Virus record (IMG/VR): IMGVR_UViG_3300037245_001637
DNA from: an uncultured virus (IMG/VR IMGVR_UViG_3300037245_001637)
Lineage: Duplodnaviria > Heunggongvirae > Uroviricota > Caudoviricetes
Length of the DNA stretch: 64,000 nt
Direction: 5' to 3' (one strand)
Position 1 is the stretch's first letter, and every line of letters starts with the position of its first letter. The notes below the pieces were generated by a model. The model made no database searches, was not told where the DNA came from, and worked only from the letters and a program-made list of their open reading frames with translations. Below, piece by piece: positions 5,321 through 56,328 of the stretch. A program made the position numbers and the translations under genes.

Positions 5321-6103
5321 TTATATTTTTACTTGAAATATCCATCCTTTATGCTGAGGTTCTTCCCCCCTCGTACAAGCCGTCACGTGTCCTGCATGTA
5401 AATTGTGTTTTCTTGCAAACTCTGCTTGGTTAGTAAATTCCTCTACGTACCCGTCAGATAATCTTGTGCCAATATAAGTTAATCCTGTCAGACAAGGAGT
5501 GTGTCGTCTATTACCCTTTTTAGTGTTTTCTTTATGGGTAATGAACACACATGTATCTTTGGAATATATTTTATTTCCTTTGATTTTTGTGTCCTTGTCT
5601 ATATCATATTCCCGCATAGTGCCATTTATCCAGTCAGTATATCCTTCAAGTTGCATTATATCTCCACAAAAATCCTGAAAACACCACCATCTTATATCTA
5701 TCTCACAGTCTTTGTAAGATGAGTTCTTTGTCTTTTGTAGTTCTTCATCATAACACCGGGAGAAAATATTATGCCACAATGTACCTATCTTTGTAGTTTT
5801 GCCTTTTAATGATACTCTATGTTCCCCTTCTCCCACAAAACCTCGTTGATACAAAAAGGGATAAAACCTATTAAGAACTAGCCCTCTTTTTATACGACTC
5901 ATAGTAGCTATTGTTTTATGCCCATCAGTAAATTGTACCACAAACTTTGAGTAATATTTAGAGTTGTTCTTACTAATAGAATACTCATCTACTTGAGATA
6001 GCACAGTTATTTCCCCACTTTTACTGGTATTCCACACAGAGCCATTAAAATAAACTCTGCTTGTATTTCTTACTCTAATGGGTGTATCTTCTGTATACAT
6101 CAT
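5321..6103 (-). CDS. Free-standing homing-type endonuclease (HNH-like core, C-terminal NUMOD1/IENR1-like helix-turn-helix)
   Basis: LWHNIFSRCY..SYKDC..RWWCFQDFC..YDIDKD..GNKIYSKDTCVF..N; C-terminal EEFTNQAEFARKHNL..KGW; paralog of 42179-42982. Confidence 0.7.
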   Translation of the reverse strand: MMYTEDTPIRVRNTSRVYFNGSVWNTSKSGEITVLSQVDEYSISKNNSKYYSKFVVQFTDGHKTIATMSRIKRGLVLNRFYPFLYQRGFVGEGEHRVSLKGKTTKIGTLWHNIFSRCYDEELQKTKNSSYKDCEIDIRWWCFQDFCGDIMQLEGYTDWINGTMREYDIDKDTKIKGNKIYSKDTCVFITHKENTKKGNRRHTPCLTGLTYIGTRLSDGYVEEFTNQAEFARKHNLHAGHVTACTRGEEPQHKGWIFQVKI

Positions 6104-18646: not shown

Positions 18647-18737
18647 TATTCTCTCCTTTTTATTATAAACAATACATTATAACTATATTACGTGTCAACC
18701 CTTGTTTTTAAATAAATTTAAATAAGGGTTGTACTCA

Positions 18738-19736
18738 TTAAAGGGTTAACAAATCCTCTACCCCATGTACTCTTATTAACTCTTTATCTATTTTCCCTCC
18801 TTTTGATCTATTTGGGGAGGATGACCAGATACGCAAATTTCTATAATTCCACCAGTTATGTATCCATGCTTCGGCCTCTTGGTGTTTCCCTTCTTTTTTA
18901 GCCCTCTTTATTTTTGCTATAAAGTATTTTGATGGGATGATGTGATCACAATCAAATAGAATCTGTCCCTTCTCATTTTTGCTATAATCCCCTAGTGTGT
19001 ACTCTCCTAAATTTAAATGTTTTTGTAAAGCCTCTCTAGAGCATCCTATATATTTCATAATAGATGCAGTTTTTTGTACTCCTATTGTTTTTAGTTGCCT
19101 ATTTAAACTCTTGCCTAAATTGTTTTTAAGTCTGTGTAGAGGGTTGTTCTTTCTTCTAGCTTTCTCTTTTTCCCATTTTCTTAATTTGTTTTCTGGTTTT
19201 TGGGAATATTCCTTTCGGTATTTTCTTGAAGCTTCCTTATTTTCAGGTAAAGCATCGTACGCAGTTTTGTATTCCTTACGGTGTTTTTTATTTTCTGGAA
19301 GTTCTCTTGTCTGCTTTTGGGCTAGTTTAACTTCTGGCTTTTTATTATAGTTATCCCGCCATAGTTTTTCCGACAATATATTTTCTGGTTTTGCATGATA
19401 TTTTTTCATAGTCTCTTTATGCCTTTTTTTATTTTCAGGTAAATCCCTATACTTCTTTGTGCATTCTTTACACGTCCTAATAAACCCTGATTTTGTCTGT
19501 TTAGTTTTACCAAAAAACTCTGCTGTAAGTTCTTTAATTCCTTCACAAGTTCCACATTTTTGCATTCCTTGTGGAACTTGTTCCTTTATTACTGGGTGGT
19601 TTCTACAATCTTTACAAATACCAACAAATCCTGATTTTAACTTATTATTTCTATTAAAAAACTCTGCTGTGTGCTCTTTCACTGTTCCACACTGATTGCA
19701 TTTCTTCATTACTATTTGTTTTTCTTCTTGCTCCAA
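18738..19736 (-). CDS. HNH homing-type endonuclease with two N-terminal CxxC..CxxC zinc fingers and PENK helical repeats (TTG start)
   Basis: KKCNQC..EFF..SGF..CKDC twice; six YxxxPENK-like repeats; DCDHIIP..WWNYRNLRIW..PNRSKG. Confidence 0.8.
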   Translation of the reverse strand: MEQEEKQIVMKKCNQCGTVKEHTAEFFNRNNKLKSGFVGICKDCRNHPVIKEQVPQGMQKCGTCEGIKELTAEFFGKTKQTKSGFIRTCKECTKKYRDLPENKKRHKETMKKYHAKPENILSEKLWRDNYNKKPEVKLAQKQTRELPENKKHRKEYKTAYDALPENKEASRKYRKEYSQKPENKLRKWEKEKARRKNNPLHRLKNNLGKSLNRQLKTIGVQKTASIMKYIGCSREALQKHLNLGEYTLGDYSKNEKGQILFDCDHIIPSKYFIAKIKRAKKEGKHQEAEAWIHNWWNYRNLRIWSSSPNRSKGGKIDKELIRVHGVEDLLTL

Positions 19737-19764
19737 ATCTAATTATTCCTTAAAGGACTATACT

Positions 19765-19920
19765 AAAAAGACTTTAGTTCTAGGGATTAGTACGTTTTCC
19801 AAGACTAGCTACTAAATCTTATCAACATCCCTAGAACTAAAGTCTCTGTATATCCTTCAATCCTTTTCGATCTTTATAGCTAATGTATTTATTAAAGAAG
19901 TACTAATTCTTTATCTCTTA
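19765..19920 (-). ncRNA. Endonuclease-leader structured RNA, copy A (putative)
   Basis: Perfect 19-bp inverted repeat 19769-19787/19827-19845; inner aaga..tctt hairpin; pairings attagtac(19786-93)/gtactaat(19900-07) and tagcta(19806-11)/tagcta(19877-82), the latter extended by G-U pairs. Confidence 0.75.
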
Positions 19921-19925
19921 TATAC

Positions 19926-19946
19926 ATTATACCCTAGTGGGAATTT
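19926..19946 (-). promoter_or_regulatory. Leader-class promoter AATTCCCACTAGGGTATAAT
   Basis: TATAAT with the upstream block shared by the other three leader copies; no TTGACA. Confidence 0.65.
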
Positions 19947-26397: not shown

Positions 26398-26604
26398 TTA
26401 AATCTCCTTACTTTTTGTAATTGCATCAGTTCCTGAATAATAAATACCCTCTATTTCTAGTATCGGCATAACCGCTAGTTGCTCTCTTTGAGCTACTTCC
26501 ATAATAGATTTCATGTTGTTAACTTCTTCAAAATCTACCTTTTTCTGTTTTAATACACTTTTTACTGCTTTACAATTAGGGCAATCATTACTGTATAATT
26601 TCAT
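26398..26604 (-). CDS. Glutaredoxin/NrdH-like redoxin (start MKLYS at 26604)
   Basis: CPNC active site; MPILEIEG. Confidence 0.85.
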   Translation of the reverse strand: MKLYSNDCPNCKAVKSVLKQKKVDFEEVNNMKSIMEVAQREQLAVMPILEIEGIYYSGTDAITKSKEI

Positions 26605-27883
26605 CTTCTCTTTTCTCCTTTCTTTTCTTATCATATATTTCTAACTCTTTAAAGTTAATTGAATTTAAGTCTATATGTTCTATATTACTAAAACATTCTC
26701 TTGCTGATCCTCCAAACCCTTTAGTAGGTTTGTAAAGGTAGTTGTGGTGTTTATTGTGTAGGTCTTTTTCTAAATATGTTCCATCGTACATATTAGTTTC
26801 TATTACATCTATTACTTGATATTGGTATGGCATGGTAGCATAATTAGGGTATCTACTTTGAACACTATTCTTGGTTACACCTATTTTGTAAAAATACTCT
26901 TTTGTAATGGAGTCAAAGCAATATATAGTATACACCTTTAGGTGTTCTGTAAGCCATTGTTCTTTGTTCTTCTCTGCGTTCTTAACTGTATACCTTCCGT
27001 GGTCAGCGCAGTCTCTACATCCATGAGAACAACCTAAATGATATCTTACTTGTTGATGAAATATCCCATGAACAGGGCATTTTAATACAAGAACTCTTTT
27101 ATTATCCTCATTTGTGTACACATCTATATAGTCATACTTGTTATTATGTATTTTGTTTCCTTTTTCTCTACACTCATCTAAGGAGTAAATATAAACAGGA
27201 GGTCCTGTTAGTGAGCCATTTTTGATACCCTCTTTTCTTCGTTGAGTTGTACAGTCAGGACAAAATCTTCCTCCTATATTATGACTGTGCATGATAACCT
27301 TAAACTCTCCATGTTCTTTACACTTTAACTTTAAACATCTGTTGCCTTCTTCATCTGTGTAAACATCTAAGTATTCATATTTATCTCCGTGTTTTTCTCG
27401 ACCTATTTTCTCACACTCCTCTAAAGTATAAAAAGTACTAGCTCGGAAACACTCCATACAACCATGATCTCTTTTATGGTTATTTATAGATGACCACCAC
27501 TTATGACCACAATCATTACAGAGGATATACACCTGTGTTTGAGATTTTTCTATCTTAAATTCTAAATATGTATATGCTTCTTCCCACGACTTTCTAAAAT
27601 CTTTTTCATGTCCTTCATTTCTATGTACAATGAAACATTCTCTACAAGGATTTTCCGATTTAACAAAAGTGCTGGGTGTTATTCTAAATATGTTTCCATC
27701 TACTAAACATCTTATTTCTACATGCAATCCTTTCCCATTTTTTACATACCACTCAACTATAATATATTTGTTATGTAATTTCTTTATCCTGTCTTCTACC
27801 CTTGGTCTCCACAAGCTCTTTTTATTTACACCTTTTCTGTCTTCTTTGTAAACTTCCCATGTTTCTTCTGAGTTACTGATAAT
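26588..27883 (-). CDS. Homing-type endonuclease with zinc-ribbon repeats and a C-terminal GIY-YIG-like domain; probable ATT start at 27883 (track start 27814)
   Basis: Repeats HGDKYEY..LKCKEHGEF..H..G..CPDC; C-terminal VYTI..FYKIGVT..RY..E..LH..FGGSARECF; frame open back to an AAGGGA RBS. Confidence 0.7.
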   Translation of the reverse strand: MISNSEETWEVYKEDRKGVNKKSLWRPRVEDRIKKLHNKYIIVEWYVKNGKGLHVEIRCLVDGNIFRITPSTFVKSENPCRECFIVHRNEGHEKDFRKSWEEAYTYLEFKIEKSQTQVYILCNDCGHKWWSSINNHKRDHGCMECFRASTFYTLEECEKIGREKHGDKYEYLDVYTDEEGNRCLKLKCKEHGEFKVIMHSHNIGGRFCPDCTTQRRKEGIKNGSLTGPPVYIYSLDECREKGNKIHNNKYDYIDVYTNEDNKRVLVLKCPVHGIFHQQVRYHLGCSHGCRDCADHGRYTVKNAEKNKEQWLTEHLKVYTIYCFDSITKEYFYKIGVTKNSVQSRYPNYATMPYQYQVIDVIETNMYDGTYLEKDLHNKHHNYLYKPTKGFGGSARECFSNIEHIDLNSINFKELEIYDKKRKEKREDEIIQ

Positions 27884-27900
27884 GATTTCCCTTATGGGTT

Positions 27901-28056
27901 AAAAAGAGTTTATTTGTAGTCTCCTCAAAGATCACGCCTATTTTAAAACCAACCTATAAAAGTCTTAAATAGTCTCTGAGGAACATACAAATAAACTCTC
28001 GTTCATATTGTTTTTACAGGTTTCTTGATTGATCCGTGACGATCTTTTTAATCCAT
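27901..28056 (-). ncRNA. Endonuclease-leader structured RNA, copy B (divergent, putative)
   Basis: 14-bp perfect stem 27905-18/27986-99 extended with bulges; inner ctattt/aaatag hairpin; tcacg(27932-36)/cgtga(28035-39); aacctataaaa(27951-61)/ttttacaggtt(28012-22) with one G-U. Confidence 0.65.
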
Positions 28057-28061
28057 ACTCT

Positions 28062-28082
28062 ATTATACCATACTGGGAATTT
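28062..28082 (-). promoter_or_regulatory. Leader-class extended -10 promoter AATTCCCAGTATGGTATAAT
   Basis: TGnTATAAT plus conserved ATTCCCA block. Confidence 0.7.
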
Positions 28083-42153: not shown

Positions 42154-42182
42154 ATAATACACCAAATGATTATTTATGTCAA
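42154..42182 (-). promoter_or_regulatory. Sigma70-type promoter TTGACA-N17-TATTAT overlapping the endonuclease stop codon
   Basis: Boxes read directly from the sequence. Confidence 0.75.
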
Positions 42183-42982: not shown

Positions 42983-43009
42983 TTGCTCTCCTTTTTTGAT
43001 TATATAATA

Positions 43010-43170
43010 GAAAAGACTCTGATTATAGTGGATTGAACCGTTTCTTAAGATGCATTACCAAATCTTAATAACTTCCACTATAATCAGAGTCTCTATATAA
43101 TCTTTATATTTTTCTCCGACTAAGGTAATGCATACAATATATAAAGAAGGTTCAGTTCTTTTTATACCTA
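43010..43170 (-). ncRNA. Endonuclease-leader structured RNA, copy C (putative)
   Basis: Perfect 19-bp inverted repeat 43014-32/43074-92; inner taagat/atctta hairpin; tgaacc(43034-39)/ggttca(43149-54); atgcattacc(43050-59)/ggtaatgcat(43124-33). Confidence 0.8.
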
Positions 43171-43175
43171 TCTCT

Positions 43176-43196
43176 ATTATACCATAGTGGGAATTT
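43176..43196 (-). promoter_or_regulatory. Leader-class extended -10 promoter AATTCCCACTATGGTATAAT
   Basis: TGnTATAAT plus conserved ATTCCCA block. Confidence 0.7.
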
Positions 43197-44442: not shown

Positions 44443-45438
44443 TTATAATCCTGCCTGTTCATCTAAATAACTAATAAACCAATTTCTAGCTTTCATACCT
44501 AAAGGTCTTCCAATATCTTTAGGTTCTAACCCATTCTCATTCATAGTATCCATTTCTTCTGCTATAACATCTTTAGATACCCAACTCAAAAAGTCTCTCA
44601 TCATTTTAATATTTGGTTCTGTACCTGTACTCATAAATACCTGTTCCACTCCTTGATTTAATCTATTTTCAGTAATGGCATACTCTATAAAAGCTTCAAC
44701 AGATTTCACCTTCTCGACATCAACAGCAGCTATAGTCTTAACTCGACTTGCCGAGTGCAAACTTCCTTTACATTTAAAGATATAGTCTCTATGTCCATTC
44801 TCATCATAATGACAGAATACAATTCCTTCCCCTATTCCAGATACATCAAAATATTTTCCAACTGGACACTCCGCTTCCACTTGCTGAACCATATCTACAA
44901 TCTTTGCTTGTGCTAATTGAGGAATATTAAAATCAATATCTACTGTGTATTTAGGAAACATGTTTGAATTGAATATTTTATTATCAGGTGAACTTAAATC
45001 TGTTTTTTCATAAGAGTGTATTTCCCCATCTTCTAAACACGTGTACTTTATAGCAAAAATCACAAACATCTTTTCTAACTGATTTAAAGCTACTCCCTTT
45101 TGAATATTCCCACCTGCCCATTCTCCAAATATTGTTGCAATAAATCCTTCTCTTGAAATTTCTTTCATCCAAGTCTCAAATAACTCTTTATTACTATCCA
45201 CGAAAAAAGCAAAGCCAGAATTATCTTTCTCTATAGTAATAATATTCTTTCTACTCTGTGCCCATAATCCATCTTCTTTGGAATAGGATATTCCTGCATT
45301 TGTTCCGTGTAATTTTACTGTCCCTTCAAACGTTAATGTTGGGAACTCTGTTCTTGGTTCTTCTGGATTCACATAACATACATCTCTTATAACTTTTCTA
45401 AACTGATCTATTTTTGTAAACTTTTGCATTGTTTTCAT
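44443..45438 (-). CDS. RNA ligase, Rnl2 family
   Basis: Motif I TVKLHGTNA, QSR, IFGEWAGGNIQKG, GEGIV, FKCKG. Confidence 0.88.
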   Translation of the reverse strand: MKTMQKFTKIDQFRKVIRDVCYVNPEEPRTEFPTLTFEGTVKLHGTNAGISYSKEDGLWAQSRKNIITIEKDNSGFAFFVDSNKELFETWMKEISREGFIATIFGEWAGGNIQKGVALNQLEKMFVIFAIKYTCLEDGEIHSYEKTDLSSPDNKIFNSNMFPKYTVDIDFNIPQLAQAKIVDMVQQVEAECPVGKYFDVSGIGEGIVFCHYDENGHRDYIFKCKGSLHSASRVKTIAAVDVEKVKSVEAFIEYAITENRLNQGVEQVFMSTGTEPNIKMMRDFLSWVSKDVIAEEMDTMNENGLEPKDIGRPLGMKARNWFISYLDEQAGL

Positions 45439-45450
45439 TCTATTTCTCCT

Positions 45451-46395
45451 CTAAGCTTTTGTTAATAATTTTTCATATGTCAGGTTAGCTTTTAGCTTCT
45501 CTAACATCCCTACTTTATTCTTTCTTAAAGAAAATAGATATGGATGTAAAGGTTTTCCCATATACTTTATGATTGCTTGTGCAAATGCCTTATCACTTGT
45601 ATATTCCTCACTCCATTCTTTCTCTAGTTGTTTTAGTGATTCAACTACATCTAAGTGTGCTTCATACTTAACTCTGACCTCATTAAATATCTCTGTATAT
45701 TCAGGATAATAAATCAATAACTCCTTAGACTCTCCGCTAATAACTAGTTTTAACATTCTATCCTTAGATAGTACTCCATTGTTGTTCATATGATGTAAAT
45801 TCAAATAAGCCAATGATTTAACCTTTACTCTTGCCCACTGATCATCTAAAACAACATAACCTTCATCGTCAAACGGTAATTCTTCTGAGGTCTTAACCAT
45901 ATCCTCAAAGGTATTAAATGCATACTCTTTAGGCTTCTTAATTCCAATATCTACATTACTTTCTAAGCCTGTTAAATTGTTTCTCGTCCCTATATGAGTA
46001 ATACTTATTTCCTTATGCGGAACAACTACCCTATTATATGGTGAAGTAACTTCAAATATATAGGTTAGTGCTTTGTCTAATGCATCTATGTCTAAATCCT
46101 GCTCTGATGATGCTTTTGAAAATAAGTGACCAAAAGTATTTAATCCATCAGGACCTATCATAGGTAGATCTGTTTTGTATGCATCTATTACTCCGTTAGT
46201 TGCTGTGCACCATTGTCCATAGTAACAAAATAATTTCATTATAGATCCATCTACCTTCTCTAATATTTTAGCTGAGTTCCAATCTATTTTATGTGCTCTT
46301 CCATCATTATAGTTAAAAAACTTATCAAATGCGTGAGCTACAACAAAAGGATTTAGTCTATCCGCTACATCTACAATAATTCCTCTGCCTGTCTT
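45451..46395 (-). CDS. T4 Rnl1-like RNA ligase; open frame extends to 46395 without an ATG (N-terminus missing or non-canonical start)
   Basis: In frame upstream of the track start: RGIIVD, AFDKFFNY, motif I EKVDGS; downstream FEVTSPYNRVVV, EGYVV, RVKVKS. Confidence 0.8.
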   Translation of the reverse strand, partial: KTGRGIIVDVADRLNPFVVAHAFDKFFNYNDGRAHKIDWNSAKILEKVDGSIMKLFCYYGQWCTATNGVIDAYKTDLPMIGPDGLNTFGHLFSKASSEQDLDIDALDKALTYIFEVTSPYNRVVVPHKEISITHIGTRNNLTGLESNVDIGIKKPKEYAFNTFEDMVKTSEELPFDDEGYVVLDDQWARVKVKSLAYLNLHHMNNNGVLSKDRMLKLVISGESKELLIYYPEYTEIFNEVRVKYEAHLDVVESLKQLEKEWSEEYTSDKAFAQAIIKYMGKPLHPYLFSLRKNKVGMLEKLKANLTYEKLLTKA

Positions 46396-46712
46396 TTAAG
46401 CTTTCGCTGTTCATCATGGTACTCTATATCCTCACCAATATACACCCTGTCTCTTAAATCATCACCATAATTTCTATAGATACTATATATTTCTGTCCAA
46501 CCATAAGTATTAAAATCCCCTGATACTAAATTAAAGATCTTTTCAGTTAAATTTAATTCATCCTTCAATAATACAAGTTTTTTAAGATTCTCTTTTCTCA
46601 ATATCTCATGTTTTGTTATCCATTCCAATTCATGCATAGCTTTTTTCTTTGCTAATATTTCATCTAACTTTCTCTGGTTCTCTTCAAATATGTTTTTCGT
46701 TATTTTTCTCAT
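46371..46712 (-). CDS. Hypothetical protein
   Basis: GAGGGG RBS; directly behind a promoter. Confidence 0.6.
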   Translation of the reverse strand: MRKITKNIFEENQRKLDEILAKKKAMHELEWITKHEILRKENLKKLVLLKDELNLTEKIFNLVSGDFNTYGWTEIYSIYRNYGDDLRDRVYIGEDIEYHDEQRKLKRQAEELL

Positions 46713-46737
46713 TTAATACCCCTCTCTTTATGATTTA

Positions 46738-46766
46738 ATAATATACTAGTAAGTATTCTTTGTCAA
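46738..46766 (-). promoter_or_regulatory. Sigma70-type promoter TTGACA-N17-TATTAT
   Basis: Boxes read directly from the sequence. Confidence 0.7.
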
Positions 46767-46807
46767 GTGGTTTAAATAAAAAAGAACCTTTTTACAGGCT
46801 CTCTTGT

Positions 46808-47206
46808 TTACTTATATAATATGAACTTTGGGCCATGAGCAAAACTTCCATTGTATCTTTTGAAATGAATTTCATATTCAGAAGTATCATCAAAGTGTAA
46901 ATCTATCTTATTAGTATTACAATATTCCCCTTTAAACTTGTTCCAAGTCATATCATCCCAATAAGGTCTATTGTGTTCATCGTATCCAAGGGGATCGAGC
47001 TCTTCCATAAGGGAATCTTGTACTGAAACCAAGTGTGTCCAAAACTTCTTTCCCTTATTATAATTTTTTAATCCCGTGACTAATTCTTCAGTTATAGTCA
47101 CACCTGTAATAATATGCACTTCTTCCCATATTTTACATTTAGCTAACTCTACAAATTTATCTGTGTGGGTGTCTAAAATTCCATGAATGTCTAAGCCTAG
47201 TTTCAT
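46808..47206 (-). CDS. HAD-superfamily phosphatase-like protein
   Basis: LGLDIHGIL (motif I variant), IITG, K..YC..IDLHFDD. Confidence 0.65.
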   Translation of the reverse strand: MKLGLDIHGILDTHTDKFVELAKCKIWEEVHIITGVTITEELVTGLKNYNKGKKFWTHLVSVQDSLMEELDPLGYDEHNRPYWDDMTWNKFKGEYCNTNKIDLHFDDTSEYEIHFKRYNGSFAHGPKFILYK

Positions 47207-48393
47207 TTAATCCTCTCAGCTAAGTTGAATACAGCTCTGATATAATCTTCTGCTATTGGGTAAACACAAACACTTTTTCCTGGTGAATCTGATACCTTAA
47301 GAGTTGGGTGGCCATTACATCTAGTCATTTTAATAACAATCTGTAAAGGCGTTACATCTGGTATATCATTACTAAGTGATGTACCAATTCCAAAAGTACA
47401 GTTGATCTTACCTTTAAATCTTTCCCAAATCTCTCTTGCTTTAGATACTGTTAAACCATCACTCCAAATAAGTGTTTTAGTCTTAGGGTCTATGTTATGT
47501 TTTTCATAATTTTTTATAGCTTTTTCTCCCCATTCAAAAACATCCCCCGAATCTTGTCTAAGTCCGTCATAAAGTTTTAAATCAGAATAACTAAAATCCT
47601 CTAAAAACTTATCAAACGTGTAGGTGTCGGATAAGGCAATTAAATTGGAATCACTAAATTCCTCTGCCCATTTCTTAAACATATACTTCTGAGAGTTCTG
47701 TACAGATGTATCTTTCATACCAACCCCAGCGCAAATTACCTGATGACTCATTGTACCAATTGGTTCTAAATCTAGCTCCATAGCTAATTTAACATTGCTT
47801 GTCCCTTTAAAGTTTGGAAGTGTACTTAATTTTGTAACTACTTCTTCCTGCCATGATCTTGAAAATCTTCTTCTTGTTCCAAAATCAGAGAATGGAAAAC
47901 CTGTTTCTAAAGCATATTCATATTTTTCATTTAAAACTTCTCTAGCTTCCACCTGTAGATTAGTGTAATTTTCTTGTGATTTCATGTACATCTCTGTATG
48001 ATAAAAATAAACCTCATTAACAATAGCTAATATAGGGACTTCAAACATAACTGTATCTACCCAAGATCCTATAATCTTAATTCTTAATTGATCATCAGAT
48101 ATTATAATAGTTATGTTATGTCTATTTAATCTAAATCCCTGTAAGAACTCAATAAAGTCTTGTGTTATTGCTGGTTGTTTTCTTAAAAACATTAGTTCTC
48201 TGTTTGTAAAATCTAATGTGCATAAATAATCTACTTGATTGTGTATATCATTTAGCATAGCCTCATTCCATACAATGCCTTTATTTCTACATGTAAAGTC
48301 ATACTCAACCTGAGTATCTCTAAACTGGTGGTAAGCAAATTTTTGAACTGAAAAAGTATAAAAATCTGTGTCTAATAAACTCTCTATAATCAT
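47203..48393 (-). CDS. pncB: Nicotinate phosphoribosyltransferase
   Basis: SLLDTDFY, FEVPILAIV, DFGTRRRFS, GTSNV, GTMSH (phospho-His), GLRQDSGD, FGIGT, IVIKM..KVSDSPGK. Confidence 0.93.
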   Translation of the reverse strand: MIIESLLDTDFYTFSVQKFAYHQFRDTQVEYDFTCRNKGIVWNEAMLNDIHNQVDYLCTLDFTNRELMFLRKQPAITQDFIEFLQGFRLNRHNITIIISDDQLRIKIIGSWVDTVMFEVPILAIVNEVYFYHTEMYMKSQENYTNLQVEAREVLNEKYEYALETGFPFSDFGTRRRFSRSWQEEVVTKLSTLPNFKGTSNVKLAMELDLEPIGTMSHQVICAGVGMKDTSVQNSQKYMFKKWAEEFSDSNLIALSDTYTFDKFLEDFSYSDLKLYDGLRQDSGDVFEWGEKAIKNYEKHNIDPKTKTLIWSDGLTVSKAREIWERFKGKINCTFGIGTSLSNDIPDVTPLQIVIKMTRCNGHPTLKVSDSPGKSVCVYPIAEDYIRAVFNLAERIK

Positions 48394-48404
48394 CTTTGTT
48401 CTCC

Positions 48405-50246
48405 TTATCTCTCTATTTCTAATATCTTGCTTTTTAAAGAATCATATAATAAACTAGACTCCCAAGCAAACTGACTCTCTCTATGATCATAACCATAACA
48501 TGATTTAGATAACATTACAATAGGTGGAGCTTGAATTCTTTTAAATATAGCTTTTTGTATAGATTTAACAAACCATTCTAAGTCTTGCATGAATACCTCG
48601 GGATCTCTTAAATTATATTTCTCATATAGAGTAATAGGTAAGTTCATCTTATCACATAATTCATTGTCTAAATACCATTGCATAAAGTCCTCTGCTGAAT
48701 ATTTCTTGTAAGACATTAGCATCTCAATCATTCTATCATGATACCCAAACTTCATTGGGTCTAATTGAGCTTCTTTTAATTCTGCTGAAGGGGCTATACC
48801 CTCTAATCCGAAGTTAAAGTTCTCATCAGGAATCATGGACGAAGGAATAGTTTCCCCAAAAGTATCATTTATATATCTACACATCTCAAATACTTCTGCT
48901 TTAGTTAAATCTCCGATAGGACAGAATAGACCATTCATATCGCCATAAATCGTGCAGTACCCCGTTGCTATCTCTAACTTATTTCCATTGTTCGTCATTA
49001 CCCCCTTATGAATAGCTGTTAAATTAGACAAAATAGATGTTCCTCTAATTTTAGCTTGCATATTCTCCTCTACCAAAGAGGACAATTTAACATCTCTTCC
49101 TTGTTTTAAAGCTCTAATATTAGTTTCTACAAGATTTTGTATAGGAAGGACTCCATAATCTATACCCAAAGTGTGAGCTAAATCATACGCAGCATCTTTA
49201 GTCTTTTCAGAATTATATTCAGAAGGCATATTGTAACCTATTACTCTATCCTTACCTAGTGCGTGAACTGCTAAAGTAGTTGTTAAGGCAGAATCGATAC
49301 CACCTGAAATTCCCATTATATAGTTTGGTTTCCATTCCATCATCTCATCCATGCCCTGATAAGCTCTGATAATGGCTTTATACTTAGCCTTTATTTTTTC
49401 ATCATAAGAAAGATATGATTCTATTGGACGAGTATTTATTTCGGAATAGTTATAGTGTACTAGCCCTTCTTCAAACATATCTAAGGGACTTTCTAACGGA
49501 TAGCCATTAGGTGTGAATGCTCTGGAATCCCCGTCAAAAGTAACTATATTTTTACCATTGTTTTGTACACCACAGGCATTAACATATAAGAATGGAACCA
49601 TAGTACTACATAAATTTATAGTATTGCATATATCTGCGACTCTTCTATCTCTTGCTCTGTTTTTGCCATCTGTCCATGGAGAACAAGATATATTTATAAT
49701 TAAACTTGATCCAAGATTTACTAACCTGCTTGTAACAGTATTATAATAATCACCATCCCACATGTCTTCACAGATCTCCACACCAATCTCTGTTCCATTA
49801 TTAAGCTTTATTGGTTCATTCTGTGTCCACTCATTACTTGATATAAAATATCTTTTATCATCAAATATTCTATAGTTAGGTAAATTAGTTTTATGTACTA
49901 TTCCTTTTAATTCCTTATCTTCAAAAACATAAGCTGAATTCATTAATCCTTGTCTTCCGTCTTCTCCTTTTTCATGATCTAATCTGAACACATTTCCATA
50001 AATTAGGATTATGCCTTCTGAGGCCTCTAGTAAGATAGCATTAAAAGACAATAGATTATCTATATATGCTGAATTAGACCACTTATCTCCAACTAAATAA
50101 CCTCCGACAGCCATTTCAGGGAATGCTATGATATCTGAACCTAATTCCTTAGCTTCTTCAATCATTTCTAGCATTCTCTTAACATTCTTCTTAGGTCTTC
50201 CTGCTTTAACATCTAGTTGGGCTAGAGATATCTTTGGATTAGTCAT
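48405..50246 (-). CDS. nadE: Glutamine-dependent NAD+ synthetase
   Basis: Nitrilase triad FPEM / HKTNLPNY / EICEDMW; synthetase GISGGIDS, ENMQAKIRG, GNKLE..GYCTIYGD, PSAEL. Confidence 0.95.
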   Translation of the reverse strand: MTNPKISLAQLDVKAGRPKKNVKRMLEMIEEAKELGSDIIAFPEMAVGGYLVGDKWSNSAYIDNLLSFNAILLEASEGIILIYGNVFRLDHEKGEDGRQGLMNSAYVFEDKELKGIVHKTNLPNYRIFDDKRYFISSNEWTQNEPIKLNNGTEIGVEICEDMWDGDYYNTVTSRLVNLGSSLIINISCSPWTDGKNRARDRRVADICNTINLCSTMVPFLYVNACGVQNNGKNIVTFDGDSRAFTPNGYPLESPLDMFEEGLVHYNYSEINTRPIESYLSYDEKIKAKYKAIIRAYQGMDEMMEWKPNYIMGISGGIDSALTTTLAVHALGKDRVIGYNMPSEYNSEKTKDAAYDLAHTLGIDYGVLPIQNLVETNIRALKQGRDVKLSSLVEENMQAKIRGTSILSNLTAIHKGVMTNNGNKLEIATGYCTIYGDMNGLFCPIGDLTKAEVFEMCRYINDTFGETIPSSMIPDENFNFGLEGIAPSAELKEAQLDPMKFGYHDRMIEMLMSYKKYSAEDFMQWYLDNELCDKMNLPITLYEKYNLRDPEVFMQDLEWFVKSIQKAIFKRIQAPPIVMLSKSCYGYDHRESQFAWESSLLYDSLKSKILEIER

Positions 50247-50808
50247 TTATAACCTCTTCTGTAGTATACCCAATCTCAATATCTAAATCCATTAAATCCT
50301 GTTCAGTCTTCTGTGCTGATTCAGGAGATAAAGCCCCGCAAGCATCTAAAATTACCGTCACATCATCAAAATACTCTTTAGCATCTTTAGCTGTATTATA
50401 CACGCATACTTCTAATGCAAGACCAGTGATGTAAATTTGTACATCATTCTCTAAGTTATCTATCAAAGCTTTTAGGCCTGTTTCTTCTACACCATTTTCA
50501 TTTTTAAACGCTGAATAGCTATCTGCCTCTGGGTTCATTCCTTTTCTTAAGATATGCTTGATATGTGTTTGTTTTAGGTAAGGGGATAACTCTGCTCCTT
50601 TAGTTCCCCACACACAGTGTATAGGCCAATCAATAAATGCCTTCTTATGGAATGGGGGATGCCAGTCTTGCGTTGCTATAACTAAATCAAACAGTCCTGA
50701 GTTCGTTAACCTATTTACATTTGGGATAATATTCTCTGCGTTTGGTACAGCTAAACTCCCTGTAATGAAATCTTTTTGCAAATCTACTATAATTAATACT
50801 TTCTTCAT
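50239..50808 (-). CDS. pncA: Nicotinamidase
   Basis: VDLQKDF, TQDWHP..H, WPIHCV, LRKG, YSAF, GLALEVCV (D-K-C triad). Confidence 0.93.
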   Translation of the reverse strand: MKKVLIIVDLQKDFITGSLAVPNAENIIPNVNRLTNSGLFDLVIATQDWHPPFHKKAFIDWPIHCVWGTKGAELSPYLKQTHIKHILRKGMNPEADSYSAFKNENGVEETGLKALIDNLENDVQIYITGLALEVCVYNTAKDAKEYFDDVTVILDACGALSPESAQKTEQDLMDLDIEIGYTTEEVIND

Positions 50809-50821
50809 TTATTTCTCCTCT

Positions 50822-51094
50822 CTAAACCTCTAATTTCCATATAGATTCCCTTGCAACGAAGTCATAGCCAACAGGAAGATTATCTATAAAATAGCAATCT
50901 CCATCGGATATGTCCCACTCATCTGAGTATGTGGGTTTTTCTGCAAATAAGTGTACCATTCTCTCATCATCTATTGTTATGTATGTTAACTCTGTATATT
51001 CTATAAATACAGAGAAATTAGTCACTAAAGTCTTTATATACTCCTCTACATTCTTATCTGTTATAACTCTTTTTCCAACTGTTACTTTCTTCAT
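50822..51094 (-). CDS. Hypothetical protein
   Basis: GAAGGAG RBS; ATGA overlap with the upstream ORF. Confidence 0.6.
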   Translation of the reverse strand: MKKVTVGKRVITDKNVEEYIKTLVTNFSVFIEYTELTYITIDDERMVHLFAEKPTYSDEWDISDGDCYFIDNLPVGYDFVARESIWKLEV

Positions 51095-51264
51095 TTTTTC
51101 TCCTTCATCTTCGTATATTCTTTAATTGCAATCTCTTGCACCTCTTCCTTGATACCCTCTTTTTCTAAGAAGTCATCAAAGGTGGGTCTTTTCTTATTTA
51201 TCTTCTGTCTTTTTAATTTCTTTAATAAGTTTAACATTATTTCTCCTCTCTTATTTATATTAAA

Positions 51265-51293
51265 ACTATACATTATTTAATTATTTGTGTCAA
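51265..51293 (-). promoter_or_regulatory. Sigma70-type promoter TTGACA-N17-TATAGT upstream of pncA-nadE-pncB
   Basis: Boxes read directly from the sequence. Confidence 0.7.
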
Positions 51294-51295
51294 TA

Positions 51296-52324
51296 CTATT
51301 TCCGAACTAATTTTTCTTTTAAGAAGTAACGTATGATCCTAAGGTGATCTGCGTAAAACATTCCATCCATATTCTTTAATTCATCAATGGGAATCCATCT
51401 AACATCTAATGCATCGTCTTGGGCTGTTATTCTAGGTAATTCTTCAAATCCTTCTAATTCTAGTGCATAACATTCAGTCACGAAGCGTCCTCTTGTGTCT
51501 CTACCGACAAGATCAAAGTGATTATTATGAATAATGGATGCTTGTAAGACACTCATGGGAACATCAATACCTGCTTCTTCATTTAGTTCTCTTAAAGCAC
51601 AATTTCTAATGCTCTCGTTCTTTTCAAGAAAACCCCCAGGAAGAGCGAGTTGTCCTCGTCCAGGCATAGCTTTTCTAGTGATTATCAATATATGATCATT
51701 ACATCTAACAAAGGCATCTCCTGTTAGAAAAGTTGGAGAATAAGGAGCAAAAACCCATGGTTTAATGTATTTTTCTTGTACAACTCTCCACCAATCTTGT
51801 AGATAAATAAAGGATCCAAAGATATAGTTCCTATATGATTCTAACCAAAGTCTTATTTCCTTTGGTACTTGATTTTGCCACCAATTATCTTCTACAAAAA
51901 AGGAATTTCTAATACTCGTAGCCGATAAGCCATTCTCTAACTCTTCTACTTCTACTAGTTCCCATGTAGGGAACAGGTTTAAATAAAAGGAGGAATGATC
52001 CTTAAAGTGTCCTAAAAGTTTTACTGTATCTGTTTCCTTAGTTACTTCTTTAACAGACTTTACTAGTGTATCACACCATACATGATTGTTATAATTTGAA
52101 TCTGCTTGATGAACAAAGGTTATTTCTTTATTGGGGTATACTGCCTCGATCATAATCTGTCTTTCTGAAGCCGTGAAGGGGTTGTCAATGGATCGAGATT
52201 CAGTAGCTGACCCCAATACTATAATTACTTGTTCACCCTCTTCAAACGCTCTATCTACTAATGCTTTATGGCCATTATGGAATGGTTGCATCCTACCTAT
52301 TATAATTGCTTTATCTGCTTTCAT
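51296..52324 (-). CDS. nadM: Bifunctional NMN/NaMN adenylyltransferase - Nudix ADP-ribose pyrophosphatase (NadM-Nudix)
   Basis: GRMQPFHNGH, GSA..NPFT..ER, SATSIR; Nudix box GGFLEKNESIRNCALRELNEEAG; DTRGR; QDDA; ADH. Confidence 0.93.
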   Translation of the reverse strand: MKADKAIIIGRMQPFHNGHKALVDRAFEEGEQVIIVLGSATESRSIDNPFTASERQIMIEAVYPNKEITFVHQADSNYNNHVWCDTLVKSVKEVTKETDTVKLLGHFKDHSSFYLNLFPTWELVEVEELENGLSATSIRNSFFVEDNWWQNQVPKEIRLWLESYRNYIFGSFIYLQDWWRVVQEKYIKPWVFAPYSPTFLTGDAFVRCNDHILIITRKAMPGRGQLALPGGFLEKNESIRNCALRELNEEAGIDVPMSVLQASIIHNNHFDLVGRDTRGRFVTECYALELEGFEELPRITAQDDALDVRWIPIDELKNMDGMFYADHLRIIRYFLKEKLVRK

Positions 52325-52728: not shown

Positions 52729-54059
52729 TTATTTCTCCTTTAATTGATCAAAAATATCTTTTCCATATAAAGCCTCTAGTACTTTATCTGCCATTTCTGT
52801 TTTCCAATCAGCTTCATCGTCTTCATGATATCTATCACTAACTCTAAAATCAATATATAATTTAGCAAAATCCATAACCTCTTTTATATCTACTTGTACC
52901 CAAGGTAACATCTCAGGTGTTATGGTTGGTTCTTTAAAATTCTTTTTAGGAACGAATATAATTAAAAGTTCTTCCTTGTCTTTATCTCCATTGTGCTTTA
53001 ATGAATTAACAGAAAATTCCCCTATTTTAAGTGTATTAAGATATTCTTCTCTTGTTGTTTTTATACCTTTGTTGTTCTTTCCTGATCCCCCTACAAGATT
53101 AAACTCTTTAAATTGTTCTTTTGTTAGAAATGGTATTTTATCTCTGTCTGAAGGTCTTACCCTGTCTGTACTTATATTATATTTCTTTTTCATTTAGTAT
53201 TCTCCTCCATAATCATTCTAAGAGTTTCCTCTAAATTTTCTTGACAAGCTTCACACTCAGGTCTGTGGACTAATAAATTACTACTATAACCTAGGTGATG
53301 AGCATAGAATTCATGTCCCTCTATAATTTCTATTTCAAATAAATATCCTCCACTAGATTCCACTTGCTCCACCTCTTCTTTTTCTTGGTATTCTTCATTG
53401 TTATTAGCAAACCCACTTATTAGAATAGTGCATATTATAATAAATGTTATTGTAAACTTTTTCATCTCATTCCTCCAACTTGTCTCTTTATTGTTATTGT
53501 TTCTCCTAATGTTCCTTTAGCTGATCTTTCTGAATATCTTTCCCCTGTTTCTACAACTTCGTAAATAACGTGAGGAAATATTGCATTCATAGATGAGAGT
53601 TCCTTCTCTCTTGCATAATCCTCTACTGTGTGAATCTTTACAATCTTAACCTCTATCATCTCATATCTAGGTGTTAAAAGCATTATAGTACATAATGTGA
53701 AAGTGCCTACTATTAAAAGTATAACTATAGTTGTTAACTTATTATCCATCTTATTTCTCCTCTTTATATACACCAAATATATTAAACATCTTAGGTATTG
53801 GTGGTTGAACTGTTCTATTAAATTCTACAATAGTTGCATGTTTAGGTACTTTAACTGTTTGTTTATTAACCCATAATGAAATAGTTGATGGATAATAAGT
53901 AACTCCTTCTGATTCGTAATGTCTCTCTACTCCGTTTATATTAACATAGACATCATAAACACTTACTTCTGTTGCAGAAGACCATAGTAGTGCAATAACT
54001 ATATAAAAGAATAATACAAATCCGCCTACCCATATAATAATTTCTTTTCCTTCACTCAT
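52729..54059 (-). other. Hypothetical CDSs (52729-53193; three small membrane-anchored or secreted proteins 53190-53465, 53462-~53749, 53751-54059)
   Basis: N-terminal hydrophobic helices; RBSs. Confidence 0.65.
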
Positions 54060-54942: not shown

Positions 54943-54971
54943 AGTTTACACTACTTTTGGATTGTTGTCAA
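54943..54971 (-). promoter_or_regulatory. Sigma70-type promoter TTGACA-N17-TAAACT right after the endonuclease stop
   Basis: Boxes read directly from the sequence. Confidence 0.6.
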
Positions 54972-55687: not shown

Positions 55688-55711
55688 TTTGGGATTCCTT
55701 TATAAGTAAAT

Positions 55712-55876
55712 AAAAAAGATTTCTGTTAAGTACGGTTCCCCCAGTTTTAAGATAAATCACACAAATCTTACAACACCCGTACTTAACAGAAATCTCTTAC
55801 TTACTTTCCTGTTACTTTCGATTAAAATGTGATTTCTAATTTATTAGAAGTTGGGGAACTTCTTTTTTTATGTCTA
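55712..55876 (-). ncRNA. Endonuclease-leader structured RNA, copy D (putative)
   Basis: Perfect 19-bp inverted repeat 55717-35/55777-95; inner taagat/atctta hairpin; gttcccc(55735-41)/ggggaac(55853-59); aaatcaca(55754-61)/tgtgattt(55828-35). Confidence 0.8.
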
Positions 55877-55881
55877 TCTCT

Positions 55882-55902
55882 ATTATAGCATAGTGGGAAT
55901 TT
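55882..55902 (-). promoter_or_regulatory. Leader-class extended -10 promoter AATTCCCACTATGCTATAAT
   Basis: TGnTATAAT plus conserved ATTCCCA block. Confidence 0.7.
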
Positions 55903-56024
55903 ATTTAGCCTTTCGTTGTAGTTTATAAATAAAAACCCTCAAAACCGAAGCCTGAGGGAAAAATACATGAATATATTTTATTAAATGAAAAAGAGGACTA
56001 AAATGAAAAGATTATCATTTGTTT

Positions 56025-56096
56025 TAGCAGGAGACGGATTTGAACCGCCGACCGTTGGGATATGAGCCCACTAAGCTACCACTGCTCCATCCTGCT
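56025..56096 (-). tRNA. tRNA-Met(CAT), initiator-like; CCA not encoded
   Basis: Acceptor AGCAGGA/TCCTGCT-A; D arm GAGC..GCTT; anticodon arm with GGG/CCC around CTCATAT; T arm GGCGG TTCAAAT CCGTC. Confidence 0.93.
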
Positions 56097-56328
56097 ACGT
56101 TTTAAATAATCCTCCCAATTTCTCAGGAGGATTTCATTGAGCCTTATTTTGATTAAGGTGTTCATCCGCTCTGGGAACACAATTTTAGCTACAAACTTAA
56201 AGGTATTGTCTCACCTGATTTTAGCTCTCCTCCTCAAAGGGGAGCTCATATAGATCCACTAATGAATCCAGCTAACTACTTAAAGTTAGTCTTAAAAATT
56301 AAAGAACCTACTGTAGATTCTCTTCTAC

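Follow-up and report, generated by a model that had tools for sequence, protein, structure and literature searches.

The window analysed here, 64,000 nucleotides (nt) of an uncultured member of the Caudoviricetes (IMG/VR record IMGVR_UViG_3300037245_001637), carries four minus-strand intergenic regions that lead into genes for homing-endonuclease-like proteins. We refer to these regions and to the genes behind them as copies A, B, C and D, copy C being the one around positions 43,010 to 43,196. All four present the same elements in a common order: a promoter box AAATTCCCAnTAnGnTATAAT, a short hairpin (P1), an A/G-rich junction, then a long stem (P2) closing over an inner hairpin (P3) and an unpaired stretch, a U-rich tail, a ribosome-binding site (RBS) and the nuclease open reading frame (ORF). 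The leader itself measures about 150 bases, in copy C about 160 nt. Two pairs of short complementary words are set into this fold. Word a lies in the P1 loop and word b in the junction; their partners a' and b' lie just before the closing arm of P2 and in the P3 loop, respectively. Coordinates are collected in Table 1.

An initial annotation, made from the letters alone, had described the four regions as one architecture, and counts over the whole window bear this out. The 21-nt promoter box, with up to three mismatches, occurs four times in the window compared with 0.40 expected, and none of 100 shuffles reached four; the P3 pattern was also seen four times, against 0.12 expected, and solely at A, B, C and D. 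A covariance model spanning promoter and leader (R2), run over the whole window with its filters off, returned exactly these four at E values up to 5e-6, while default filters missed copy D. The leaders had also been thought to belong to no named Rfam family. In line with this, tRNA was the sole match to Rfam 15 in the whole window, and copies C and B, searched at E values up to 10, gave only sub-threshold, microRNA-precursor-like matches to long hairpins (best 25 bits, gathering thresholds 49-120).

P1, P2, P3 and the U-rich tail are predicted by folding in all copies. The stem of A, C and D, first reported as a perfect 19 bp, comprises 20, 21 and 22 contiguous pairs when the basal G-U pairs are included, and the enclosed loop has the 39-41 nt originally given; copy B splits P2 into a 14-bp outer and a roughly 10-bp inner stem. 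The RBS follows 10-25 nt 3' of the U tract, outside P2. That the fold belongs to a minus-strand RNA, as had been argued from its wobble pairs, is upheld: the promoter-sense strand is 5.9-6.2 kcal/mol more stable in folding than the opposite strand in all four window copies, 33 of the 455 predicted helix pairs are G-U, and R2 scores the reverse strand at 33-37 bits, compared with 192-203 bits for A, C and the closest relative of A, described below.

Scanning IMG/VR for the promoter box found 15 loci in three contigs, 12 of them in a contig of 154 kb (G001). Four of the G001 loci (L001, L007, L010 and L015) hold leaders with the architecture of the window copies written in new letters. A homing-endonuclease-like ORF follows each of the eight leaders, and no leader stands before any other gene; the portability and the tie to homing-type nucleases suggested for the window thus extend to two phage genomes. 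In every copy a P2 of 14-22 bp leads straight into the U-rich tail; the stem is an unbroken 20-22 pairs in A, C, D and L015, and the other copies split about 25 pairs over two segments. A stem followed by a U tract, as an attenuator requires, therefore lies 5' of the regulated ORF (8/8). No unpaired sequence conserved across all eight copies was seen. The promoter lies 5' of the entire fold in all eight. It is, as far as sequence can tell, a late-type promoter, because the portal gene (phrog_145, E 2e-106) and a scaffold gene of G001 carry the same box, as do other non-nuclease genes there, all with short plain leaders.

As far as the window is compared, the cassette appears to be the unit that the two phages have in common, together with the type of promoter, because only six of the 83 window ORFs of at least 100 amino acids (aa) have counterparts in G001 and five of these are nucleases. 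The sole non-nuclease ORF with a G001 relative (53462-53776 (-), 104 aa, unknown function) is 56% identical to G001 2153-2461. The closest pair of leaders, A and L015, shares 78% identity after the promoter, and the two stay alike across the RBS and up to a few bases past the TTG start; their nucleases show no mutual BLAST match at E 1e-4. Leader similarity does not track nuclease type, and the pair of A and L015 suggests that nuclease ORFs have been swapped behind a conserved module of promoter, leader and start. Another G001 locus, L008 (1430-1521 (-), about 98.83-98.93 kb of G001), has the late promoter, a GC-rich hairpin with U5, an RBS and a nuclease of the A/D family, which amounts to the cassette layout in minimal form, lacking the elaborate fold. 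Three further G001 nuclease genes lack a leader and have a TTGACA-type promoter or none.

The words a/a' and b/b' had been noted to vary between copies while always pairing within one, and covariation had been proposed as the check. For the formal pair count we used a model-based alignment of the four close copies A, L015, C and D; MAFFT left the four divergent copies out of register. Standard pairs fill 95.3% of the cells, compared with 79.7 +/- 1.9% in shuffled sets and 35-50% when partners are slid by one to three columns. Two-sided changes affect 24 of the 48 pairs against 8.3 +/- 2.3 in shuffles, and none of 500 shuffles equalled the observed value on any of five measures. Broken down by helix, such changes occur in three of six pairs of P1, 12 of 21 of P2 (100% of cells paired) and four of six each for a and b, two helices that lie outside the structure of the alignment model; in D, b' stands two columns off register. 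Since four sequences are few and the pseudoknot columns were picked from the same sequences, an alignment-free test on all eight copies was added, in which custom scripts duplexed the region 5' of P2 with the P3 loop, or with the stretch before the 3' arm, of every copy. The best partner of a' was the P1 loop in eight of eight copies, and that of the P3 loop lay 40-55 nt from the start, again in all eight. Own-copy pairing averaged -9.6 kcal/mol for a:a' and -10.4 kcal/mol for b:b', compared with -5.1 kcal/mol for other-copy combinations in both cases (0 and 1 of 20000 permutations as low), in agreement with what had been noted for the four window copies. Orthogonality is imperfect: pairing reaches -13.7 kcal/mol between the 5' region of L015 and the L001 loop and -10.1 kcal/mol between that of B and the D loop, and the a word is identical in C and L010. 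The words are not cleanly orthogonal, and therefore copy-specific recognition, part of the attenuator model first put forward, is not established.

A further pairing emerged when transcripts were folded up to the base before the P2 3' arm, mimicking a polymerase that nears the stop signal. In all eight copies the lowest-energy truncated fold has 9-12 nt of the P2 5' arm bound to a junction segment just after b, which we call X (its partner in the arm being X'); nested within these folds are a:a' in five copies and b:b' in four. The mean own-copy energy of X:X' is -8.2 kcal/mol, compared with -4.2 kcal/mol for other copies (0 of 20000 permutations, eight copies), and the fraction of X shuffles that pair as well ranges from 0.000 to 0.093 per copy; in copy C, X:X' reaches -11.0 kcal/mol, equalled by none of 300 shuffles. 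P2 becomes the lowest-energy fold only once 3-12 nt of its 3' arm are out, and the full hairpin, at -31 to -43 kcal/mol, is the winner at equilibrium. X:X' is thus an alternative pairing that sequesters a terminator arm, as attenuators possess, in a register that is not conserved in all copies. On these folding models X is a candidate antiterminator strand, and a:a', b:b' and X:X' would nest into one fold that competes with P2. The double pseudoknot on the finished stem, initially offered as the cis-acting form, is accordingly probably not the working state.

In the same junction, Shine-Dalgarno-like purine runs (AAAGGA, GGAG, AGGAAAG) occur in about six of the eight copies (window 19851-19880 and equivalents), overlapping X, with no common start codon after them. 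A leader peptide was considered and rejected, since inspection by eye revealed no start codon common to A-D; a group I intron or split host gene was likewise discarded, the flanking ORFs being complete and Rfam giving no intron match.

Taken together, we favour the reading, with a probability of roughly 0.55, that each leader is a cis-acting, ligand-free kissing-loop transcription attenuator within a mobile cassette of late promoter, leader and nuclease. Transcription would begin at the phage late-type promoter, and the nascent P1 would show a in its loop while b and X are single-stranded. X would then bind the 5' arm of the upcoming terminator stem; P3 would present b', and b:b' followed by a:a' would shut around the antiterminator hairpin. 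To terminate, the P2 3' arm would have to oust X, against both loop pairings, before the polymerase clears the U tract. Should P2 win, the product would be a released, stable RNA of about 150-160 nt, and the nuclease would remain unmade; if it loses, read-through would reach the RBS and the nuclease ORF. The fold would in this way set, and perhaps tune, the small share of late transcripts that yield a potentially harmful nuclease. The analysis shows the architecture, the covariation of five helices and of X:X', the identity of the late promoter and the exclusive tie to nuclease ORFs in two unrelated phages; termination at the U tract, opposition to it by the kissing pairs and low nuclease expression are inferred. 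The kissing pairs would fit the antiterminator state best, because they are nested with X:X' and complete just before the 3' arm appears, and because a two-turn P2 helix is presumably hard to close around tied strands. How strongly a, b and X pair would determine the balance, or a factor that the sequence does not reveal would adjust it. The attenuator part of the initial model thus gains a terminator-like stem, a U tract and an antiterminator logic through X:X'.

Several points weigh against this reading. X:X' forms in differing alignment registers, C using another segment of the junction than A, D and L015; with a purine-rich junction facing a pyrimidine-rich arm, some other-copy X pairings are strong too (down to -10.5 kcal/mol). 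A long AT-rich stem with a structured 40-nt loop is an atypical intrinsic terminator, and a scan for consensus terminators, which admits loops of up to 8 nt, passed over the leaders on account of their longer loops. No nucleotide of P2 takes part in the kissing pairs, and pseudoknot-free folding cannot tell whether these pairs hinder, help or leave termination unaffected. Simple attenuation needs no such elaborate fold, as L008 manages with a plain hairpin. The leader is absent from one of the five nuclease genes of the window and from four of eight in G001, and only eight copies were found, in two metagenomic phage sequences. Finally, the sole sequencing run that contains the window is a DNA metagenome of marine sediment, perhaps the one it came from, and the leader ends are predicted from the sequence.

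Clearly less probable, and the first alternative to be weighed, is a reading in which the RNA released at the terminator, about 150 nt long, has a function itself: transcribed from a strong late promoter, it would be a stable small RNA that acts in trans, on its own nascent leaders or as a protein decoy or scaffold, with the nuclease made by leak-through. Promoter, compact fold and U tract are the anatomy of a small-RNA gene, in which the 5' hairpin and the 3' terminator hairpin would guard the ends, and a fold far beyond the plain hairpin of L008 points to selection on shape or on the displayed words. Both partners of each word pair are exposed, in a loop or a single strand, which is also true of antisense-RNA control systems, and the words differ among copies of one genome. 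In one version, free a' and b' would capture nascent a and b and block the antiterminator clamp, resulting in negative feedback. Against a role in trans stands the region behind the leader: in the 110 nt after the U tract, the own-copy means for a' and b' were -5.8 and -5.7 kcal/mol compared with -5.0 and -6.5 kcal/mol for other copies, so there is no excess and no target near the RBS, and the longest words have no further occurrence in the window. The words also fail to be orthogonal within a genome, as the cross-pairings of L015 with L001 and of B with D illustrate, and the eight copies have no conserved unpaired sequence that could mark a protein site. The missing excess behind the U tract also leaves unsupported the analogy to P1 C4 and P4 CI RNA that had been drawn at first.

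A little less probable again is a self-titrating attenuator that uses the sense RNA. Here a:a' and b:b' would clamp the antiterminator in cis and allow read-through; in finished RNAs P2 would free the words, and accumulated leaders would trap nascent a and b in trans and thereby cause termination. If this were true, every cassette would carry an RNA-only dosage controller that needs neither protein nor antisense promoter, and word divergence would keep the circuits (and the DNA repeats) apart.

We regard it as unlikely that the long perfect duplex acts as an RNase III site or another processing or stability element, comparable to the R sites of T7 or lambda sib, whose cleavage would part the leader from the nuclease message and set half-life or translation. 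P2, at about two helical turns, is longer than a terminator needs. After read-through, the stem of A, C, D and L015 could grow past the U tract to about 30 bp; in these copies the flanks beyond the U tract pair in a copy-specific manner (-5.5 to -12.1 kcal/mol; 6 of 20000 permutations for the whole set), and the base of the extended stem abuts the RBS. However, B, L001, L007 and L010 show little or none of this extension, the pairings a:a', b:b' and X:X' are left unexplained, and the cleavage specificity of the host enzyme is not predictable. Such a role may add to attenuation in the four copies that have the extension.

Very improbable is an action at the DNA level, with the repeats as sites of nuclease recognition, recombination or cruciform formation. 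Every helix is of course also an inverted repeat in DNA and the elements flank mobile nuclease genes, but the G-U pairs counted above would turn into A-C mismatches in DNA or on the opposite strand, and the fold's preference of about 6 kcal/mol for the promoter-sense strand in four of four copies, the low reverse-strand scores of R2 and the polar layout of promoter, fold, U tract and RBS all speak for RNA. Homing sites, moreover, normally lie in the nuclease-free allele and not beside the gene, unlike these leaders. The least probable reading, a guide or scaffold RNA of the OMEGA or HEARO kind to which the nuclease encoded behind it would bind, which the initial annotation had kept as its alternative and which is suggested by a structured RNA with variable words directly 5' of HNH-type genes, has no support: one architecture serves small nucleases of three PHROG families, no RuvC or IscB-type protein, large RuvC-HNH effector, HEARO match or other Rfam match was found, each variable word has its partner in the same RNA, and the longest words recur nowhere in the window.

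Among known systems, the nearest mechanistic precedent for the leaders appears to be the guanidine-IV (mepA) riboswitch. PMC11611296 describes how the loop of an upstream hairpin kisses the loop of the terminator hairpin and hinders completion of the stem, leading to read-through, with an outcome that is decided during transcription and within a narrow window. The likeness lies in the upstream hairpin loop, here that of P1, pairing within the loop of the terminator hairpin. The riboswitch requires conserved loop nucleotides and guanidine, whereas the words of the leaders vary per copy and no conserved pocket was seen; the leaders combine two kissing pairs with an extra strand complementary to the terminator 5' arm, and they precede phage nucleases instead of transporters. 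Membership in the guanidine-IV class is further contradicted by the missing Rfam match, by loop nucleotides that are not conserved and by nuclease ORFs (8/8) in place of guanidine export or detoxification genes.

Restraint of homing endonuclease genes has precedents in the T4 family. As set out in PMC2988022, late promoters, stable RNA hairpins and intrinsic terminators hold them back, examples being I-TevI, I-TevII, I-TevIII, segB, Aeh1 mobE, the terminators of T4 mobE and segF, and the hairpin of seg43(25), which stands just upstream of a free RBS. The T4 arrangements, according to the same paper (PMC2988022), bury the RBS in a hairpin, place the late promoter inside the hairpin and put terminators in the coding region. 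The leaders, by comparison, keep the promoter 5' of the whole fold (outside it in 8/8) and the RBS outside P2, add covarying long-range pairings and a candidate antiterminator, and have no sequence relationship to the T4 elements.

In the rep attenuation of pT181 and pIP501, a preemptor strand pairs with the proximal terminator arm and loop-displayed words decide the outcome, under control of an antisense RNA from the opposite strand. The leaders resemble these systems in the preemptor-like strand on the terminator arm and differ in having no conserved antisense promoter, none being found in leaders A-D. Inside leader C, a promoter-like match on the plus strand (TTACCA-18-TATAAT, 43055-43084 (+)) would yield an antisense RNA; it is probably a chance match, because its letters are specific to that copy and have no counterpart in A, B or D, and control by antisense RNA from a conserved promoter was rejected on this single occurrence. 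In P1/P7 C4 and P4 CI, a leader-derived RNA carries two short words whose complements lie upstream in the transcript and affects termination; a second set of words overlaps the regulated RBS or lies downstream, and immunity genes are controlled. The leaders lack a second word set and precede nuclease genes instead of immunity genes.

Full-text literature searches found no published description of such a nuclease leader. Supplementary file 5 of PMC10690425 contains unnamed csRNA candidates no more than 25 bp upstream of HNH and GIY-YIG genes ('hnh' 59, 'giy-yig' 52 occurrences). The main text gives these candidates no structure, mechanism or name ('hnh' 0 occurrences), and their comparison with the leaders is by description only (PMC10690425). 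The leaders join two known kinds of element, the cis-acting leaders that restrain phage homing endonuclease genes and the terminator/antiterminator attenuators.

No selfish element is commoner in large phages than the homing endonuclease gene, and to our knowledge the details of its restraint have been worked out only for T4 and the phages related to it. The leader family would solve the problem in another way, by a regulatory RNA module that accompanies the gene in two otherwise unrelated phages and stands before three or four types of nuclease. It appears to unite terminator, antiterminator and two kissing interactions without a conserved ligand pocket. If confirmed, the leaders would be a ligand-free natural relative of the kissing-loop riboswitch logic and, with words that can be changed freely, a compact reprogrammable part for setting expression levels.

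The proteins behind the eight leaders measure 193-408 aa, belong to PHROG endonuclease families only and fall into three such families or four BLAST groups. The three families named at the outset for the window are thereby supported by PHROGs (A and D sharing phrog_1035) and by BLAST; the NUMOD and GIY-YIG motifs as such were not shown. The N-terminus of nuclease A aligns with that of nuclease D, and the copy C nuclease has no Pfam match at 0.01. A fifth nuclease of the window (5321-6103 (-), 260 aa) belongs to phrog_2081 and is 44% identical to that of C; it has neither promoter box nor leader, and its ATG overlaps the stop codon of a preceding ORF of 56 aa. Because of this relative, the leader cannot be obligatory for the nuclease C family.

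Table 1. Leaders, their parts and associated genes (window positions unless stated otherwise)
Feature	Position	Strand	Remarks
Leader region A, with promoter	19762-19946	-	
Leader region B, with promoter	27899-28082	-	
Leader region C, with promoter	43006-43196	-	
Leader region D, with promoter	55708-55902	-	
Copy C promoter AAATTCCCACTATGGTATAAT	43176-43196	-	extended -10 (TGnTATAAT) and conserved upstream box
Copy C leader RNA	43006-43170	-	start placed by the -10 box, end by the U tract; R2 192 bits, E 1e-36
Copy C P1 (6 bp)	43143-43161	-	7-nt loop with word a at 43149-43154
Copy C word b (10 nt)	43124-43133	-	unpaired in terminator fold; partner b' in P3 loop, -13.3 kcal/mol
Copy C segment X	43113-43123	-	complements P2 5' arm positions 5-15 (43080-43090); candidate antiterminator strand
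Copy C P2 5' arm (21 nt)	43074-43094	-	
Copy C P3	43046-43067	-	b' 43050-43059 in loop, 2-nt overlap with 3' stem strand
Copy C word a'	43034-43039	-	unpaired in P2 loop, one base 5' of P2 3' arm; -8.7 kcal/mol
Copy C P2 3' arm	43012-43032	-	continues into U tract 43006-43016
Copy C nuclease ORF, 267 aa	42179-42982	-	phrog_2081 'HNH endonuclease', E 8e-46; RBS ~42986-42994
Promoter-like site, TTGACA-17-TATTAT	42154-42182	-	directly after copy C nuclease stop codon; consensus match only
Copy A promoter	19926-19946	-	
Copy A P1	19893-19913	-	word a 19900-19905
Copy A word b	19876-19882	-	
Copy A segment X	19851-19872	-	
Copy A P2 arms	19827-19846 with 19768-19787	-	
Copy A P3	19800-19821	-	
Copy A word a'	19788-19793	-	
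Copy A U tract	19762-19770	-	
Copy A nuclease ORF, 332 aa	18738-19736	-	TTG start; phrog_1035 'endonuclease VII', E 9e-11
TTGACA promoter-like site after A	18669-18698	-	consensus match only
Copy B leader		-	R2 46.7 bits, E 3e-7
Copy B promoter	28062-28082	-	
Copy B P1	28031-28044	-	word a 28035-28040
Copy B word b	28012-28022	-	
Copy B segment X	28000-28011	-	
Copy B outer P2 arms	27986-27999 with 27905-27918	-	
Copy B P3	27945-27966	-	
Copy B word a'	27931-27936	-	
Copy B U tract	27899-27907	-	
Copy B nuclease ORF, 408 aa from TTG	26588-27814	-	phrog_681, E 2e-38; Pfam MUG113, E 5e-6
Copy D leader		-	R2 88.8 bits
Copy D promoter	55882-55902	-	
Copy D P1	55846-55863	-	word a 55852-55858
Copy D word b	55827-55835	-	
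Copy D segment X	55805-55821	-	
Copy D P2 arms	55777-55798 with 55714-55735	-	
Copy D P3	55748-55770	-	
Copy D word a'	55737-55743	-	
Copy D U tract	55708-55716	-	
Copy D nuclease ORF, 237 aa	54974-55687	-	phrog_1035, E 1e-13; family as for A
TTGACA promoter-like site after D	54943-54971	-	consensus match only
G001 leader L001	53.5 kb of G001		followed by nuclease-like ORF
G001 leader L010	65.6 kb of G001		followed by nuclease-like ORF
G001 leader L007	116.4 kb of G001		followed by nuclease-like ORF
G001 leader L015	150.3 kb of G001		followed by nuclease-like ORF
Start-region similarity, A and L015	L015:1300-1345 vs window 19725-19770	-	

Beyond G001, the search for relatives in phage databases, also proposed in the initial annotation, was negative. 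Megablast and distant blastn of the leader region against 50,697 phage records gave no match or at most 27% query coverage, and tblastn of nuclease D against the same records gave none. In 50 IMG/VR records related through a 675-aa protein, the R1 model returned seven weak matches (E 0.0045-0.097), of which the three best were inspected and found not to be members. A scan of metagenomes for an 18-nt promoter pattern, in which 15 bases were fixed, yielded no leader in 80 loci among the matches listed, which were unrelated. Two RNA-based patterns were run on viral contigs: the first gave no model match at E up to 0.1 in 80 loci among the matches listed, the second 12 weak ones (E at least 0.031), again in 80 loci among the matches listed; L468, from the second set and unflagged by R1, was inspected and is not a member. 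Among relatives of the A/D nucleases, 34 of 37 loci were scanned (the three in G001 being excluded) with a single match at E 0.68, and a promoter scan of genome contigs covered 25 loci with three weak matches (E at least 0.11). A structure-only scan of other loci for a long stem and T tract produced 59 candidates, as a list only.

Simple terminator-like hairpins of the upstream gene precede C and D, and by sequence the nuclease cassettes seem to sit between transcription units. The stop signal of a leader need not starve the genes downstream, because promoter-like TTGACA-type sites, each in front of the next gene, directly follow nucleases A, C and D. Just upstream of cassette D lies a single tRNA-Met (CAT) gene (56024-56097 (-)), and then a terminator-like hairpin (55936-55958). 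At nuclease B, the frame is open upstream of the listed TTG to just past the RBS AAGGGAAA (window 27814-27890 (-)) with AUU and AUC as the only candidate starts, and an ATG at 27860 opens another frame of 12 codons; the 5' end of this gene could have a non-canonical start or be damaged.

With primase, NrdD/NrdG, NAD salvage genes, RNA ligase, tRNA nucleotidyltransferase and one tRNA-Met, the window looks, by gene content, like the part of a large phage genome that holds early or metabolic genes, the host being one of low GC content. Its best cultured relatives, at about 50% protein identity, are the Clostridioides phage pCD1602_4 and myophages of the Bacillus cereus group. An auxiliary cluster at 44443-52324 (-) comprises an RNA ligase, a second RNA-ligase-like ORF and one ORF each of nicotinamide phosphoribosyltransferase-like, NAD synthetase-like and cytidylyltransferase/NUDIX type, and its NAD salvage set resembles that of large myophages.

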